Part shown: positions 1 through 37,250 of the stretch, one piece after another | Layout: the number at the start of each line of letters is the position of its first letter | How positions within the stretch are numbered: the stretch's first letter is position 1 | Source of the DNA: Candidatus Iainarchaeum sp. | Lineage (GTDB): Archaea; Iainarchaeota; Iainarchaeia; Iainarchaeales; GCA-2688035 | Direction of reading: 5' to 3' | Length of the DNA stretch: 39,982 bases | NCBI GenBank assembly: GCA_017610175.1 | Contig: JAFCCO010000015.1 | Location: 1-39,982 of the forward strand | Notes under the pieces: model-generated | Databases searched by the model: none | The model's input: only the letters and a program-made list of their open reading frames with translations | What the model was told of the DNA's origin: nothing | Position numbers and translations under genes: made by a program

Positions 1-531
1 CGCAAGAGGAGTGTTTAAAGCAGAAAAAAAGTCGGGCGAAGTGTTTGAATCATCAACTGTTGTTGAGGATAAAAAGGAACCAAACCAACTCCACTCATTC
101 ACATCATTGTTTGCAATATCAAGGTTTACATCCAAAGGAAAACTATTGTACAAAACATTCGAATCATACAAAGCAGGAGAGTAGTTTCCGTCGTGTGAAA
201 CAAAGTGCGCAGAATACTGAAAGAAACGGGTGGGGGAAAAGGCATTCAAATCCCAAACAGAACCAGCATTTGAGAACGGGACAGCAAAAACCGAGCCTGT
301 TTCACCGTCAGGTCCGGCAAAAACCTCACCAGCACACTCAGAGTCATCACAACCCCTCACCTGAAACAAAACATTAACATCTGCAGAATTGTCCACCGAA
401 TAAACCCCAAAAACATCGTGGATTGAATTGTACTGGGGAAGAACAATGCCAATGGCAAAAGCAAAAGCAAACTGAAAGCTAAGCAAAAGGCACACTGTTA
501 ACAGCAAAAAACCCTTTTTCAGCTTTCCCAT
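1..531 (-). CDS. Secreted/surface protein, 3'-partial (runs off the window start); absent from the ORF track
   Basis: Manual translation from ATG at 531 is open to base 1: MGKLKKGFLLLTVCLLLSFQFAFAFA (signal peptide) ...VNVLFQVRGCDDSECAGEVFAGPDG...FSPTRFFQYSAHF...SPALYDSNVLY...FPLDVNLDIANNDVNEWSWFGSF...DFFSALN. Confidence 0.85.
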   Translation of the reverse strand, partial: MGKLKKGFLLLTVCLLLSFQFAFAFAIGIVLPQYNSIHDVFGVYSVDNSADVNVLFQVRGCDDSECAGEVFAGPDGETGSVFAVPFSNAGSVWDLNAFSPTRFFQYSAHFVSHDGNYSPALYDSNVLYNSFPLDVNLDIANNDVNEWSWFGSFLSSTTVDDSNTSPDFFSALNTPLA

Positions 532-619
532 CTCATTTCCCCTTTCTCCTTTCTTTCTTCCCGGTAGTTTTCCCATTCCATTTTTCCTTTGACTTTTTTT
601 CCCTTTCCTTTTTTTTTCG

Positions 620-673
620 CTTCAAGATTCAAAATTCCAGATTACCAGATTCAAGACAGATTTTCAGATTCAA
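620..673 (-). repeat. Short tandem AATCT(G) repeats directly after the stop codon of the lectin-fold gene; candidate DGR cis element
   Basis: Minus strand reads TGAATCTGAAAATCTGTCTTGAATCTGGTAATCTGGAATTTTGAATCTTGAAG, five AATCT copies. Confidence 0.6.
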
Positions 674-783
674 GGCGCCGCGCAGCAGCGAAACCCGACG
701 CTGCAGGTCGCAAGGGCCGAATCGAAGCTCAAATAGGCACTGAACAAGCCCGCAATGCCCCCAATGCTCCAACCGCCGCCACG
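670..783 (-). other. Putative DGR variable repeat (VR)
   Basis: RGGGWSIGGIAGLFSAYLSFDSALATCSVGFRCC: fixed scaffold with NNY codons at positions where DGR templates carry AAY; 9 adenines in 111 nt, no codon ends in A; GC-rich 3' end CGCTGCTGCGCGGCGCC. Confidence 0.7.
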
Positions 784-1827
784 CAGAACAGCCCGATTCT
801 CCTTCGTTGAGCTTGTGTAAACCCCGTCGTTCCCATAATGCAAACTCTTTTCCCCGTTTCCCCACAGGGGAGGAGAAACATCGTCATTCGGATAATTCCA
901 GCCATTGTCAGCCGAGTCGGCGTTAACATCTACAACATCCGATGTCCAGTCGTAAACGTTTCCAATCAAATCAAAAACACCCTCTGCGGACACACAGTTT
1001 GAAGGGCTCTGGCTGTTGGTGCTTCCTGTATTGCACGCGGCCCCACCCCCCTGGGAATGACTTGGACAAGAATTTGTTGCGCCAACAACGCATGCGGCGT
1101 CTGTTACAGCGTCACTCAAACCGTAAACCTGTCCGTTGAGGTTTGCGGCAGCCATCCACTCTTCACTCGAGCACAAATGCTTTCCGGCAGCCGCACAGGC
1201 TGTTGCTGCATTTGTTTGTGAGATTGTTGTCCACGGTATTCTGCCGGCAACGCTTGCAGGAACCGGGCTTTCACCATAATGGGCTTCACTGCCTGCACTC
1301 CATTCAATGCTGTTGTCGCAGAAGGTTGCGTCAGAGTGGCTCGCCTCATACTTGTCAATGCAGAAGCCGCCAAGCTTTGGAATAAAAGCCATTCCTTCCG
1401 GGCAATTAAAATCCTTCAAGCCCCAAGAGATTGAGTTCCAGTCAACAACACTTCCGGCATCAAACACCCTGCTGTTATAATCACCCGAAGTGCTCCCCGC
1501 CGTCAATCCAACGAACCCGTTCCCGTCCAAAGAATTAAAATCAGTCCCAGAGTACGCGCCAGCATCAAACTCTGCCTCAGAATTCACATCCCAGTTAAAG
1601 TCAACATCAAAATTGGCTTCACCCACCAAATCCATTGAAACAGATGAAACGTTTGCATTCAAAGGAATGCTGAAAGAGCCGGCAGACCCCCCCGCCGCAA
1701 AGAAAGAAAAAGACTCACCGGACTCACCGCCGCCAAAAGTCGAAATTGTTGGCGCAAAAACAAGCAAACCAGCAAAAAGCAGGCAAGCAACAGCCACCAA
1801 CAAAAAAGGCTTCCAACGGCTTTGCAT
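670..1827 (-). CDS. Secreted or membrane-anchored protein with C-terminal FGE-sulfatase/C-type lectin (CLec) fold; likely DGR target
   Basis: N-terminal hydrophobic segment after MQSRWK (ATG 1827 preferred over 1881); FGE-type motifs CPEGM, FCIDKYEAS, A...C...GKHLCSSEEW, GVFDLIGNVYDW, AVLRGGGW, VGFRCC. Confidence 0.85.
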   Translation of the reverse strand: MQSRWKPFLLVAVACLLFAGLLVFAPTISTFGGGESGESFSFFAAGGSAGSFSIPLNANVSSVSMDLVGEANFDVDFNWDVNSEAEFDAGAYSGTDFNSLDGNGFVGLTAGSTSGDYNSRVFDAGSVVDWNSISWGLKDFNCPEGMAFIPKLGGFCIDKYEASHSDATFCDNSIEWSAGSEAHYGESPVPASVAGRIPWTTISQTNAATACAAAGKHLCSSEEWMAAANLNGQVYGLSDAVTDAACVVGATNSCPSHSQGGGAACNTGSTNSQSPSNCVSAEGVFDLIGNVYDWTSDVVDVNADSADNGWNYPNDDVSPPLWGNGEKSLHYGNDGVYTSSTKENRAVLRGGGWSIGGIAGLFSAYLSFDSALATCSVGFRCCAAP

Positions 1828-2692: not shown

Positions 2693-3556
2693 ATGGAATA
2701 TACTGCAAACGATTCTCCCTCTAAAAACAAGGACGCAATCATCTCGCGCTACAGGCAGGAGCTTATTGTAGGGGGCTACAGCGCGCGCACAATCAAAATG
2801 TACCTTTTTTACCTGAAAGACTTTCTCGGCTCAACCCAAAAGCCGATGGATGAGGTTGTGCGCGAGGACATAATCGCATTCCTTGCAAAGAAAAAGGAGG
2901 AAAAGAACGCAAGCAACTCAACCATTTCACTAATTCACTCCTCCCTTAGGTTCTATTTCCACAACATCCTTGGTAAAAAAATTCTCGATGAAATAAAAAC
3001 CCCGCGCAAGGCAAAAAAACTACCTGTTACACTCACGCGGGACGAAATCAGGGACCTGATTAAGGCATCCAAGCCCAAGCGCAACCGCCTGATTGTTCAG
3101 TTTCTTTATTCCTCGGGAGCAAGGGTTAGCGAGTGTGTAAAGCTCAAAGTACCAGACCTCAATCTCAAAGAGAGAATTGCAATGGTGCGCGGCGGCAAGG
3201 GAAACAAGGACAGAGCCATCATTCTGTCCAAGGAGTGGATTAAGTATTTGAAGAAATATCTGGACCGCAAGAAGGTAAAATCCGAATTTGTCTTCAGCAA
3301 GAAAAACGGCAAAAAACTAAGCACTGATACTGTGCAACGGATTGTGAGAGAGGCTGCTGAAAAAGCGGGAATTCAAAAGCACATTACCCCCCACAGCCTG
3401 CGCCACTCATACGCAACCCATCTGCTGGAGGCCGGGGAAAATCTCAGAAAAATCCAGGAGCTGCTGGGCCACTCCAACCTAAACACCACCCAGATTTATA
3501 CCCATGTTTCAGTCAATGACCTTAAAAAAGTTGAAAGCCCGCTTGACAAGCTCTGA
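2693..3556 (+). CDS. xerA: XerA/XerD-type tyrosine recombinase
   Basis: SAM-like N-domain (YSARTIKMY), SGARVSE, GGKGNKDR, ITPHSLRHSYATHLLE, LLGHSNLNTTQIY with the full R-K-H-R-H-Y catalytic set. Confidence 0.92.
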   Translation: MEYTANDSPSKNKDAIISRYRQELIVGGYSARTIKMYLFYLKDFLGSTQKPMDEVVREDIIAFLAKKKEEKNASNSTISLIHSSLRFYFHNILGKKILDEIKTPRKAKKLPVTLTRDEIRDLIKASKPKRNRLIVQFLYSSGARVSECVKLKVPDLNLKERIAMVRGGKGNKDRAIILSKEWIKYLKKYLDRKKVKSEFVFSKKNGKKLSTDTVQRIVREAAEKAGIQKHITPHSLRHSYATHLLEAGENLRKIQELLGHSNLNTTQIYTHVSVNDLKKVESPLDKL

Positions 3557-8957: not shown

Positions 8958-9031
8958 GGGCCCGTAGCTCAGTCTGGTAGAGCACCTGGCTCTTAACCAG
9001 GGCGTCGAGGGTTCGAATCCCTTCGGGCTCG
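8958..9031 (+). tRNA. tRNA-Lys (CTT)
   Basis: GGGCCCGTAGCTCAG...CCTGG-CTCTTAA-CCAGG...GTTCGAATC...CGGGCTCG. Confidence 0.97.
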
Positions 9032-9091
9032 CTCACTTTTTTCTTTAAAAAGAAAAAGGTTCCTACATATAAATGAAGTATGCCCTTTGTT

Positions 9092-9165
9092 GGGCCCGTA
9101 GCTCAGTCTGGTAGAGCAGTGGCCTTTTAAGCCATGTGTCGAGGGTTCGAATCCCTTCGGGCTCG
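9092..9165 (+). tRNA. tRNA-Lys (TTT)
   Basis: GGGCCCGTAGCTCAG...GTGGC-CTTTTAA-GCCAT...GTTCGAATC...CGGGCTCG. Confidence 0.97.
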
Positions 9166-9208
9166 CTAAATGTCCTTTTAAAACTAAGGGGCGATAAAGT
9201 ATAGCGCC

Positions 9209-9282
9209 GGGACCATAGCTCAGTCTGGGAGAGCACACGGCTGAAGACCGTGGTGTCGCGGGTTCAAATCCCGCTGGTCCCA
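9209..9282 (+). tRNA. tRNA-Phe (GAA)
   Basis: GGGACCATAGCTCAG...CACGG-CTGAAGA-CCGTG...GTTCAAATC...TGGTCCCA. Confidence 0.97.
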
Positions 9283-12394: not shown

Positions 12395-14275
12395 CTATTT
12401 TCTCTCTACATTCAGCACATAGGGCAAAGCAGATATTTTTTCAATTGCCTTGTCCAATTGCCCTTTTTTTTGGATTCTCACATTGAACAGGCAGCTTGTT
12501 ATGCTGTTTTTGTTTGTTTTTGCGTTGGTTGAGTCAATTTTTATGCGGTTTTCTGAAAAAATTTTCAGAAGTTCCGGAAAAAGGGCTGCATTGTCTTTTG
12601 CCTCTATTGCAAGCGCGGTTTCATAGTTTTTTTCCGCGCCCAGCCATTCAACGGTAATCACTTTGGCCTTGTCCACCCCCTTAATCCCCGGGCAGCTTTT
12701 TCTGTGCACTGAAATTTTTCTCTTAGTTGTTTTGTACCCAATAATTTCGTCTCCGGGAAGGGGTTTGCAGCATTTGGCCATCCTTATGCTTAAGTCAGAG
12801 GTTGTTTTTTCAACGATTCTCGGCTTCTTTTTTCTGGAGGTGTGCTCCCTTATTCCAAGAGCCTGCTTTATTTTGCTTTTTGCCTTTTCTGTTTTGACAA
12901 AATTAAGCCACTGCCTCTTAACCTGTTTCTTTGGGCCGGTAATTATTTCAATTGTGTCTGAATTTTCAAGCACATGGTTTAGCCCAACAGCTTTGCCATT
13001 CACTTTTGTTCCTTTTGCCCGGCATCCAATATCGGAGTGTATTGCGTATGCGAAATCTATCGGGGTTGAGTTCTCCCTCAAAATTATGACCTGCCTTTTT
13101 GGAGTGAATACAAAAATCCGTTCCTCTCCGGACCTTGCTTTAAGGCTTTGTCTTAGGGCGCTTGATTCCTTGTGGGTTTTGTGCCAGTCCATCAACTGTT
13201 TAACCATTGTCAATTTTCTGTCAAAATATTTATCTTTGCGGTTTCCTTTGTACTGCCAGTGTGCCGCAAGCCCGACTTCGTCGTCCCAGTGCATTTGCCA
13301 TGTTCTGATTTGCACTTCTGCGGGCGCCCTGTTTTTTATAATTACGGTGTGGATGCTTTTGTACTTATTGTCTTTTGCGTCTGCGATGTAGTCGCGAAAC
13401 TTGTGTTCTATAGTTTGGTAGTTTGAATTGATTGTCCCAAGGGCCTTGTAGCAGTCTTCTACGCTGTTGCAGATTATTCTTGCGCCCTGCAAATCATATA
13501 TTTCGTTGAACGGCTTTCGCTTCATTTTTTTGAATATGCTGTAAAAGTGCTTTGCCCTTGCAAGCACAATAGTGTCAAGCCCATGTTTTTTCATGAGCTT
13601 TTCAAGTTCTTCCCCCAACTCCTTTGCGTCCTTTTCCCGCGTAACTCTTTTTGCGCCGAGAAGATCCTTTATTCTGTTGAATTCAACCCTGTAAAGCTGT
13701 TTGAATGCCAAGTCCTCCAACATCCATTCAAATTCGTTTATTCCAAGTTTGTGGCAGAGTGGGGCGTAAACATTTAGTGCAATCATTGCCTTTTGTTTCG
13801 CCTCTGTTTCATTGACAAATTCCTCGGCCATAAACCGGTCGATTGTTGAGGCGATTTTTATGAAAATTGTTCTAATGTCTTTTGCCGAGGCAAGCATAAT
13901 TGTTGACAAAAGCCCCCAGTCCACCCTGTCAAGATTTGCTTCCTCCACCACCCTGCTTTTTTGCTGTTCGTCAATTAGTTCCACAATGTCTTTTCCAAAC
14001 AGCTTTTCAATCTCTTTTCTTTCAGAATCGTCTTTGCAGTCGGCGTGGTGCAATAGCACAGCCGTTATCATCTCTTCGTCGGGCGAGAGCTTTGCCATTA
14101 TTTTTGCGGTATTAAGCAGGTGTTCTTTGAAGAGCCGCCCTGTTGGGGTAGTCTGCTGGCTAATAGAATTAGCTGCATATTCAAAAGTCTTTTTTAAGCG
14201 GGCAAAGTTTAGTTTTACCCCCTTTTCCCGTAGTTTTTCCTCCAGCTGGCTAAAGGAAGTTATTATCTCCTGCAT
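12395..14275 (-). CDS. Long RelA/SpoT homologue: degenerate HD, synthetase, TGS, Cys-containing domain and ACT
   Basis: YAPLCHKLGI, LEDLAF, RAKHFYSI..KM, DLQGARII, DYIA..K.N.YKSIHT, EVQIRT.QMH, GLAAHWQYK, IFVFTPK, TPIDFAYAIHSDIG, MAKCCKPLPGD, C-terminal ACT. Confidence 0.95.
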   Translation of the reverse strand: MQEIITSFSQLEEKLREKGVKLNFARLKKTFEYAANSISQQTTPTGRLFKEHLLNTAKIMAKLSPDEEMITAVLLHHADCKDDSERKEIEKLFGKDIVELIDEQQKSRVVEEANLDRVDWGLLSTIMLASAKDIRTIFIKIASTIDRFMAEEFVNETEAKQKAMIALNVYAPLCHKLGINEFEWMLEDLAFKQLYRVEFNRIKDLLGAKRVTREKDAKELGEELEKLMKKHGLDTIVLARAKHFYSIFKKMKRKPFNEIYDLQGARIICNSVEDCYKALGTINSNYQTIEHKFRDYIADAKDNKYKSIHTVIIKNRAPAEVQIRTWQMHWDDEVGLAAHWQYKGNRKDKYFDRKLTMVKQLMDWHKTHKESSALRQSLKARSGEERIFVFTPKRQVIILRENSTPIDFAYAIHSDIGCRAKGTKVNGKAVGLNHVLENSDTIEIITGPKKQVKRQWLNFVKTEKAKSKIKQALGIREHTSRKKKPRIVEKTTSDLSIRMAKCCKPLPGDEIIGYKTTKRKISVHRKSCPGIKGVDKAKVITVEWLGAEKNYETALAIEAKDNAALFPELLKIFSENRIKIDSTNAKTNKNSITSCLFNVRIQKKGQLDKAIEKISALPYVLNVERK

Positions 14276-15755: not shown

Positions 15756-16244
15756 CTACTTCCTTTTTTTCTTTTTTGATTTAGGCGTTGCCTTTTTCTT
15801 AACGGGCTTTTTGGCCCTTGCCTTTGTTTTCTTTGCAGATTTTCGCGCGGTACTTTTCTTTGCAGGCTTCTTTGCCGCTTTTTTTGATTTTGCGGATTTT
15901 CTGCTTTTTTTGGGTTTTGCCTTTACTTTTTTCTTATTTGCCTTCTTCTTGGGTTTTGCTTTCTTTTTTGCAGGCTTCTTTGCCGCTTTTTTTGGTTTTT
16001 TGGCATTTGCCTTCTTTTTTGCCCTTCTCTTTGGGTTATTGGAGGGCCTTGCCCTTACAAGCGACGGCATAAATGTCTGGAAATCGTCCTCTTCTCCGCC
16101 TTCGTTTAGTTCTTTGCGCATTTCAGCAATAATGTCCTTTACTGTCATTTTTTCTTCAGTCAATGTAGTTCCTCCAGAAGAAGAATAATCAATTATGATG
16201 CGTTTTCTTATATTTATTCTTTTTCCTTTCTTCTTTTGGGCCAA
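15756..16244 (-). CDS. Lys/Ala-rich histone H1-like basic protein
   Basis: C-terminal ~90 aa of K/A/P repeats (KKAAKKPAKK twice) after a short mixed-charge domain; start uncertain (TTG). Confidence 0.7.
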   Translation of the reverse strand: MAQKKKGKRINIRKRIIIDYSSSGGTTLTEEKMTVKDIIAEMRKELNEGGEEDDFQTFMPSLVRARPSNNPKRRAKKKANAKKPKKAAKKPAKKKAKPKKKANKKKVKAKPKKSRKSAKSKKAAKKPAKKSTARKSAKKTKARAKKPVKKKATPKSKKKKRK

Positions 16245-36576: not shown

Positions 36577-37250
36577 TTCTTTTCCCCTGCAGGTTCCTTT
36601 GCTTCTGTTTTCTCCTTTGCAGGTTCTTTTTTCTCTTCTTTTGCAGGCACAGGGTTTTCTTTTGCAGCCTTTGCTTCCGGCTTGGCTTCTGCCTTTGGCT
36701 TTGCGGCTTCCTTTGCTTTTTCTGCAGGCTTTTCCTCTGGCTTGGCTTCAACTTTTGCTTCTGCCTTTGGCTTTGCGGCAGCTTTTGCCTTGCTTGCCCT
36801 GTCATCTATTGCTTTTGCGTCTGCTTTAACTTTTTCGCTAAATATTTTGTAGACTTCTTTGGCTTTTGCTATAAGGAAGCTTTGTCCTTTTCCTGAAAGG
36901 GCTCTTCCTGCTTTTTCCTTTTTCAAAAGCCCTTTTTTCTCAAGTTCCTGCAAGCATGTTCTAATCACTTTTCCGCTTGCTTTGCTGAAGTGGTGTGGCT
37001 TTACTCCGCGGTTTCTTTTTCCGCCGTAGTATGTCCTAAGCCTGTTTGTTCCAATTGTTCCGTCTTTGTAAGCCCTGTACAGAATGCTTGCCATTCTTAC
37101 ATAAAACCAGTCTCTTCTCTGCGGGGCCCTTTCCCTGTGGCTTCCGCTCTTTACAAATTCCGTCCATGCAGGTTCTTCTATTCCCTGCGTTTTCAAATCC
37201 TGTGCAATCGCTTCAATTAGCTCTGTTGCCGGTACGTCATATATTCCCAT
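36573..37250 (-). CDS. rps19e: 30S ribosomal protein eS19 with long K/A/E/P tail
   Basis: YDVPA..LI, PAWTEFVKSG..RERAP, WFYVR.ASI, YGG..NRG, SGKVIR..LQELE. Confidence 0.96.
   Translation of the reverse strand: MGIYDVPATELIEAIAQDLKTQGIEEPAWTEFVKSGSHRERAPQRRDWFYVRMASILYRAYKDGTIGTNRLRTYYGGKRNRGVKPHHFSKASGKVIRTCLQELEKKGLLKKEKAGRALSGKGQSFLIAKAKEVYKIFSEKVKADAKAIDDRASKAKAAAKPKAEAKVEAKPEEKPAEKAKEAAKPKAEAKPEAKAAKENPVPAKEEKKEPAKEKTEAKEPAGEKK

Follow-up and report, generated by a model that had tools for sequence, protein, structure and literature searches.

The window, a stretch of 39,982 nucleotides from the genome of Candidatus Iainarchaeum sp. (assembly GCA_017610175.1, contig JAFCCO010000015.1), begins with two neighbouring genes, gene 1 and gene 2, which very probably are the products of the fission of one gene, as indicated by their alignments to single-chain surface proteins. 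Gene 1 ends in a C-type-lectin domain that is preceded by segments A1 and B1, and gene 2 starts with a signal peptide of its own, followed by segments B2 and A2. A1 and A2 correspond to the two parts of an outer beta-sandwich domain A, and B1 and B2 to the halves of a domain B nested inside it, and the break between the genes is located at the innermost position. In two related genomes, the lectin is the target of a diversity-generating retroelement (DGR). Structure predictions support the docking of the two chains, and we consider it fairly probable that the chains reassemble outside the cell.

The window forms the start of contig C7 of a 1.24 Mb genome bin (G000; 34 contigs, 90.25% complete), and gene 2 is therefore truncated by the assembly at base 1. 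Gene 1 comprises 385 residues counting the stop, and the open reading frame (ORF) of gene 2 contains 177 residues and is open at its 3' end (Table 1). The genes follow each other head to tail in the same frame on the minus strand, at the positions given in a preliminary description of this DNA, with their starts 1296 nucleotides apart and three in-frame stops between the starts. Both proteins have a hydrophobic N-terminus, which was taken, by eye, as an export signal. In gene 1, this stretch can be aligned to the signal regions at the N-termini of the single-chain homologues P0018 and P0024.

Gene 1 and gene 2 match consecutive parts of single-chain proteins

A profile covering the ~200 residues at the mature N-terminus of gene 2 and both of its orthologues was compared with 1.84 billion representative proteins and matched 573 of them with E <= 1e-3; the counts of homologues given below refer to the best 150 of the 573. 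Two proteins, P0018 (901 residues) and P0024 (1180 residues), which were reached only via this profile, contain in a single chain a signal, A1, B1, DUF2341 and Laminin_G_3 domains, B2, and A2. In BLASTP comparisons, residues 8–135 of gene 1 align with residues 13–135 of P0024 (35% identity, E 2e-14), and residues 9–135 with residues 9–125 of P0018 (E 2e-13). Gene 2 residues 52–176 align with residues 733–845 of P0024 (E 5e-14), and residues 49–177 with residues 482–600 of P0018 (E 3e-18). Segment A1 is colinear with residues 30–63 of P0018 and 42–75 of P0024. Gene 1 and gene 2 thus match ordered, non-overlapping parts of the single chains, which identifies the two proteins of the window as the N-terminal 135 residues and the post-insert part of one kind of protein. 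Judged by these alignments, the nested order of A1 and B1 before the break and B2 and A2 after it exceeds chance. The preliminary description had proposed this order, with A1 and A2 as well as B1 and B2 united in single-chain homologues, and P0018 and P0024 display it with DUF2341 and Laminin_G_3 at the break.

The joining of B1 to B2 is common among the homologues. With small hidden Markov models (HMMs), 94 of the 150 proteins were found to carry B1 ahead of B2 within one chain, and these proteins contain 113 such pairs. Seven of the pairs are contiguous, with a gap of at most 18 residues. The gap has 20–150 residues in one pair, 150–250 in 68, 250–350 in 23, 350–700 in 12, and is longer in two, so that 103 of the 113 pairs are separated by 150–700 residues, and the inserts are mostly LamG-sized. 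The limits of the segments are the match positions of the HMMs, which contain the window's own sequences, so only the positions count. Four B1-LamG-B2 proteins from the window's phylum were read (L003–L006), two of which were scanned and both match Laminin_G_3. Besides these four, the ORF was read for the B2 match in G140:C52; the matches in G121, G064, G063, G100, G140:C188, and G140:C42 were left out. A single-chain protein from genome G069 contains an apparent A1, recognised by eye, another insert of ~170 residues, and A2. Pfam scans of the window, its relatives, and the single chains identified no family over domain A or B and none in gene 2. No solved structure resembles A or B by sequence, as the matches in the PDB are confined to the LamG columns.

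The lectin of gene 1 occupies exactly the position of the DUF2341/LamG insert of the single-chain homologues. Neither gene matches Laminin_G_3, and gene 2 contains just a tail-like stretch between its signal peptide and B2. Some LamG-type HMMER alignments begin at profile positions 5–7, ahead of B2, and MAFFT places the stretch against the LamG tail of the single-chain forms. It is therefore probable that the break is located inside a pre-existing LamG insert, most of which was replaced by the lectin module. This is the weakest step of the reading, because the alignment is short and ambiguous. The preliminary description had the lectin inserted in the innermost loop and the gene split there; the position stands, but the break probably was not in a bare loop.

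The split recurs in related genomes with an active retroelement

The check for the same split in related genomes, suggested with the preliminary description, found it in G027 and G173, which belong to two other families of the window's order. Gene 1 of G027 is 61% identical to that of the window, and the locus is contained in one 10.6-kb contig. Gene 1 is followed by bAvd (E 9.6e-22), a template repeat (TR), a reverse transcriptase (RT; RVT_1, E 1e-24), and a gene 2 of 1615 residues, which overlaps the stop of the RT gene. The G027 gene 2 protein has a signal peptide, B2, and A2 at its start and a membrane anchor at its end, and its N-terminus is 51% identical to gene 2 of the window. The TR and the variable region (VR) of G027 differ by 17 mismatches in a 122-nucleotide core, 16 of which are at TR adenines. 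In G173, contig C40 contains Avd, TR, and RT with a gene 2 of 1485 residues directly downstream (52% identity to the window over 145 residues, tblastn), and gene 1 (62% identity) is on the separate contig C60. The VR on C60 differs from the TR on C40 by 20 mismatches in 119 nucleotides, all 20 at TR adenines. These adenine-specific differences identify the lectin as a true target of the DGR in both genomes. The gene 2 homologue on G173:C40 includes a masked run (X in the translation) in its immunoglobulin-like (Ig-like) repeats (L033, ~3200–3330).

The gene 1 family includes five proteins of nearly the same length and, in addition to these, the one on G173:C60. In a fourth genome, G140, gene 1 is interrupted just ahead of the lectin, where the contig ends, and no gene 2 of the window type was found in this 77%-complete genome. 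Among 215 genomes of the phylum, strong matches to an A1-B1 query occur only in G000, G027, G173, and G140, and strong matches to an A2 query only in G000, G027, and G173; in G069, the second half of A2 is matched less strongly. The two pieces are thus retained together in three genomes from three families, in three arrangements. RTs related to that of G027 were found in 26 of the 215 genomes. Searches of public genome contigs with gene 2 identified no relative, and those with the profile led to no contigs beyond those of G027 and G173, apart from a single bacterial match to B2. Among metagenome contigs, a gene 1 query found the G027 locus in another copy, and a lectin protein that is unrelated. 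In genome G028, the variable-region end of gene 1 has four short matches, on contigs C1, C2, C12, and C25 (L010, L013, L017, L018), all at contig ends; they probably belong to a multi-target DGR, the targets of which broke the assembly.

Models of the split pair

The complex was modelled for the pair from G027, because A2 of the window is cut. This A2 lacks ~50 residues past the contig end, which are present in G027, G173, P0018, and P0024. The modelled chains were the A1-B1 piece (116 residues, 25 alignment rows) and mature B2-A2 (211 residues, 28 rows). Three runs of the complex gave interface scores (ipSAE, interaction prediction score from aligned errors) of 0.78, 0.77, and 0.76, with a median of 0.77, and the best of three controls scored 0.00. 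Of 80 solved complexes, 58 reached the mark applied to ipSAE, as did 2 of 110 mismatched pairs; these counts are only rough because the author's own alignments were used. The three runs share at least 91% of their contacts, which number 445–467. The predicted local distance difference test score (pLDDT) was 81–83 for chain 1 and 78–80 for the partner in the complex; in the controls, A1-B1 reached 34 and 41 and B2-A2 44, so both chains were predicted as unfolded.

The residue pairs with the least predicted error connect residues 86–94 of B1 with residues 72–80 of B2 in an antiparallel register, and residues 11, 22–23, and 38–40 of A1 with residues 182–185 and 195–196 in the C-terminal strands of A2. 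In the model, A1 is thus paired with A2, and B1 with B2. Nearly the whole 116-residue piece is at the interface, where it completes two domains, and nothing points to a subunit that repeats. The co-folding proposed with the preliminary description, carried out on the orthologous pair, therefore gave the expected outcome, and the model supports the docking of the two chains. It should be considered that the halves of split genes tend to pass such docking tests.

The lectin domain and the stretch behind it

The lectin domain of gene 1 matches the FGE-sulfatase family with E 6e-14 (52.7 bits, the cut-off being 23.3), and FGE is the only solved structure to which gene 1 gives a match, a weak one. 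Like DGR targets, gene 1 has a C-terminal lectin fold with the VR homologue in its last strands, and it is 61–62% identical to the targets of G027 and G173. The decay of the VR homologue was considered and set aside as uninformative: the homologue has 17 non-adenine differences in 114 positions from the TR of either relative, and each of the two relatives differs from the TR of the other to the same degree (15). A closely related lectin with 63% identity is encoded at 1018–2280 of locus L009 (G013:C141), on an archaeal pilin-like N-terminus and with a C-terminal extension; no retroelement was found in the stretch read, ~1.4 kb past the end of the gene. The fusion indicates that the same head is used on other scaffolds.

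The stretch that follows the VR in G027 matches the end of gene 1 and most of the spacer of the window in a gapped alignment, which beyond the AATCTG motifs is A-rich and heavily gapped. The paired AATCTG motif occurs three times in the window, every time among the copies behind the VR homologue, and 0.07 occurrences are expected by chance. The pair is also present behind gene 1 in G027 (L019 1812–1832) and G173 (L074 2897–2973). Elsewhere, it was found at one distinct place (L091) in 97 fetched loci, many of which overlap. The repeats may act in cis, in homing or in termination. A hairpin or cruciform behind the VR is a feature of DGRs according to PMC5006420. No hairpin was predicted here, and the stretches fold no better than shuffled sequences (z-scores of 0.97 for the window, 1.48 for G027, and 0.38 for G173). 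The non-coding cis elements that the preliminary description placed behind the VR may thus be represented by the repeated motif, but not by a hairpin.

Alternative explanations

Several observations weigh against the proposed fission and reassembly. The model covers the G027 orthologues and not the truncated pair of the window, and both of its alignments contain pieces of the same single-chain proteins. B2 without detectable B1 in the chain was found in 56 of the 150 homologues, and in some of these B2 is present twice (for example P0025, P0026, P0033, P0036, and P0052); B2 may therefore fold without B1. AlphaFold2 predicted the B2 core (residues 21–80) of G027 B2-A2 alone with a pLDDT of 70–93. 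The full nesting was found in two single chains only, and a word-based search for A1-B1 in longer proteins gave 0 of 571 candidates at E <= 0.1. The adjacency of the genes is not constant either: unrelated genes come after gene 1 in G173, and the related Avd-TR-RT cassette of G028 (C31) precedes housekeeping genes, so gene 2 is not a fixed part of the cassette. The prediction of gene 1 alone, with 5 alignment rows and a pLDDT of 27.8, is uninformative. The homologues with B2 but no B1, the confidently modelled B2 core, and the separated genes of G173 agree with fission without reassembly, in which A1-B1 only spaces or carries a lectin that is free or tethered to the membrane, and B2-A2 folds or works alone. 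We consider this unlikely, since the gene pair has been retained in three arrangements and the conservation of A1 and B1 is close to that of the lectin scaffold (mean pairwise identities among six gene 1 proteins of 0.61, 0.68, and 0.72, respectively), which argues against a decaying leftover. Furthermore, the low pLDDT values of the separate chains rise to those of folded domains when the chains are modelled together; G027 B2-A2 alone had a mean of 58.8, with only 33–60 for A2.

The position of the locus at a contig end, and the two genes in the same frame on one strand, could also be the result of a recent nonsense mutation or of a chimeric assembly join at 532–669, where the retroelement seen in G027 is missing. 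Such an artefact or pseudogene is very improbable: the genes are separated by three in-frame stops and a 138-nucleotide spacer, gene 2 starts independently and with a hydrophobic signal that resembles those of its homologues, the lectin has no counterpart in gene 2, and the two-gene form recurs in assemblies and protein clusters that are independent (G027, G173, P0002–P0004, P0006–P0008). Repeat searches found no second copy of 682–808, and thus no TR, in the window; none was found in the 34 contigs of the genome (blastn, word size 7), and neither an RT (RVT_1, 0/1; no match to the G027 RT) nor an Avd (tblastn with the G027 Avd) was found in the genome. The 22 other genomes of the window's family likewise yielded no RT. 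Hypervariability is therefore not established here, and the preliminary description's account of the lectin as a hypervariable DGR target applies to G027 and G173 but not to the window genome. The head is now probably fixed or served by an unassembled element. An unassembled or unbinned retroelement that still diversifies the lectin in trans would supplement the fission reading rather than replace it. It has a precedent in G173, in which the cassette is on another contig than gene 1, and would fit the retained AATCTG motif and a genome that is 90% complete in 34 contigs; repeats such as VR and TR often break assemblies. The failure to find RT, Avd, and TR in 1.24 Mb, and RT in the rest of the family, makes it doubtful. 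Active diversification in the window genome is likewise improbable.

Proposed origin of the two genes

With fission as the preferred reading, the ancestor would have been one giant membrane-anchored archaeal surface protein, consisting of a signal peptide, A1, B1, DUF2341/LamG inserts, B2, A2, a long Ig-like stalk, and a C-terminal membrane anchor. Domain B would have been nested in domain A and the lectin-like inserts in domain B. A DGR target module, composed of a C-type lectin ending in the VR and followed in the relatives by Avd, TR, and RT, may then have replaced most of the innermost insert. Gene 1 would thereby have kept the signal, A1, B1, and the lectin, closed by a stop, and gene 2 would have acquired a new signal peptide in front of the short LamG tail relic, B2, A2, and the stalk. 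Each chain would be exported on its own. The A1-B1 piece of ~110 residues, predicted to be unable to fold alone, would zip onto B2-A2 and rebuild both beta-sandwiches. The lectin would thus take the place that LamG has in the single-chain relatives, at the distal end of the stalk. In the relatives with a DGR, the retroelement rewrites the last ~40 codons of the lectin. We tentatively propose that a DGR cassette cut a doubly nested gene and that the chains reconstitute interlocked sandwiches, which would make the head an exchangeable cartridge for a fixed 1500-residue stalk. The genes could then separate, as in G173, or lose the retroelement, as in the window.

Features of the locus and its surroundings

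Table 1. Features of gene 1, gene 2, and the spacer between them (positions in the window).
Feature	Position	Strand	Basis
Gene 1: signal/transmembrane segment, A1, B1, C-type-lectin domain, stop	670..1827	minus	ORF; G027 orthologue, 61% identity
Gene 1 N-terminal hydrophobic segment, signal peptide or signal anchor	1753..1827, approximate	minus	by eye
A1, first strands of outer beta-sandwich domain A	1618..1719	minus	gene 1 residues 37–70
B1, first half of inner domain B	1420..1596	minus	gene 1 residues 78–136
FGE-sulfatase / C-type-lectin fold domain	685..1302	minus	PF03781, gene 1 residues 176–381
DGR variable-region homologue, last ~42 codons of gene 1	682..808	minus	aligns with G027 TR
Four close AATCTG copies, beginning in the gene 1 stop codon	638..670	minus	
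Inter-gene spacer, 138 nucleotides	532..669	minus	G027 has ~1.85 kb Avd-TR-RT here
Gene 2, first 177 residues: signal peptide, LamG tail relic, B2, A2	1..531	minus	ORF
Gene 2 signal peptide	454..531, approximate	minus	by eye; like the N-termini of P0006–P0008, P0011, P0012
Putative C-terminal tail relic of LamG insert	385..453	minus	short ambiguous alignment
B2, second half of domain B	142..384	minus	gene 2 residues 50–130
A2, later strands of domain A, incomplete	1..141	minus	gene 2 residues 131–177

The remainder of gene 2 was not found on any contig of its own genome in tblastn searches with the long homologues, and the extension of the contig suggested with the preliminary description thus failed. 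Ig-like repeats that resemble the gene 2 type of stalk are present at the ends of contigs C11, C13, C22, C28, and C34 (tblastn). The genome holds several giant surface proteins, the repeats of which fragment the assembly. Upstream of gene 1, positions 1834–1900 are 84% identical over 68 nucleotides to C28:52446-52513, near the end of C28, which may reflect a shared promoter or a paralogous locus.

The surrounding genes are archaeal housekeeping genes, including those of TFIIE alpha, aTrm56, class I LysRS, RadA, RPA, and S19e. Beside gene 1, a tyrosine recombinase is encoded at 2693–3556 (Phage_integrase, E 5e-50), next to which two small overlapping ORFs on the minus strand (1971–2264 and 2261–2515) resemble a toxin-antitoxin pair. 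A long RelA/SpoT-type protein of 626 residues with HD_4, RelA_SpoT, TGS, and ACT domains is encoded on the minus strand at 12395–14275, amid the housekeeping genes; long enzymes of this type are unusual in archaea. The window also contains a cluster of tRNA-Lys, tRNA-Lys, and tRNA-Phe at 8958–9282 and Lys/Ala-rich coding repeats at 15856–16032 and 36657–36788, one of which is within a C-terminal extension of ribosomal protein S19e.

Implications and comparison with known systems

DGR targets are usually described as single proteins with a rewritten C-terminal lectin. The locus suggests a route by which a DGR could reach a ligand-binding site deep in a nested protein: the gene is broken, and the VR stays at a 3' end, at the cost of a two-chain assembly outside the cell. 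If the assembly takes place, archaea would provide a natural example of split-domain complementation, in which two nested sandwiches are restored from separately exported chains. A testable rule for locating the hidden partners of DGR targets with "junk"-like N-termini would then follow, and the pair could serve as a small, naturally occurring scaffold on which variable binders are displayed at the end of a fixed stalk. The window further suggests that an orphan variable-region gene can persist beside its partner after the loss of the retroelement. Our literature search, to which supplements were external, found no paper joining DGRs with a split target or with domains completed in trans. The text of PMC8144416 contains no occurrence of "split", "laminin", or "truncated", and its supplements may list such targets.

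According to PMC5006420, the DGR variable proteins Mtd, TvpA, and the archaeal AvpA have a C-terminal C-type-lectin fold of the FGE subclass. Gene 1 is similar to them in its FGE-subclass lectin with the VR homologue in the last ~40 codons, and its orthologues share with those systems an adenine-specific TR/VR pair, Avd, and RT. Unlike in the proteins as described there, the N-terminal part of gene 1 is half of two nested domains, the other half of which begins the next gene; furthermore, the window genome differs from those systems in that no retroelement was found in it and no hairpin behind the VR homologue.

The nearest functional parallel is the type V pilus of Bacteroides (bioRxiv 10.1101/2024.11.15.621889), in which a DGR-diversified lectin tip adhesin is attached non-covalently, outside the cytoplasm, to a separately encoded stalk by beta-strand insertion. 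The joining of gene 1 and gene 2 is known here as a model. According to the same source, type V pilins accept a single donor strand after proteolysis and polymerise, whereas here ~110 residues would complete two nested sandwiches of one giant stalk protein in a 1:1 complex that is archaeal and originates from gene fission. The donor-strand pilins in general (chaperone-usher, type V, and archaeal cannulae) supply one missing Ig-like strand and form polymers, which differs from the arrangement in our model.

The single-chain relatives P0018 and P0024 and the B1-LamG-B2 proteins (L003–L006 and their counterparts among the best homologues) carry lectin-like domains at the same loop. They differ in being one chain, in having LamG/DUF2341 instead of the C-type lectin, and in lacking a variable region. 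The conversion of one gene into two cooperating genes in a small archaeal genome resembles the split protein genes of Nanoarchaeota. The products of those genes are cytoplasmic enzymes, whereas both pieces described here are predicted to be exported, and the cut is inside two nested extracellular domains beside a retroelement.

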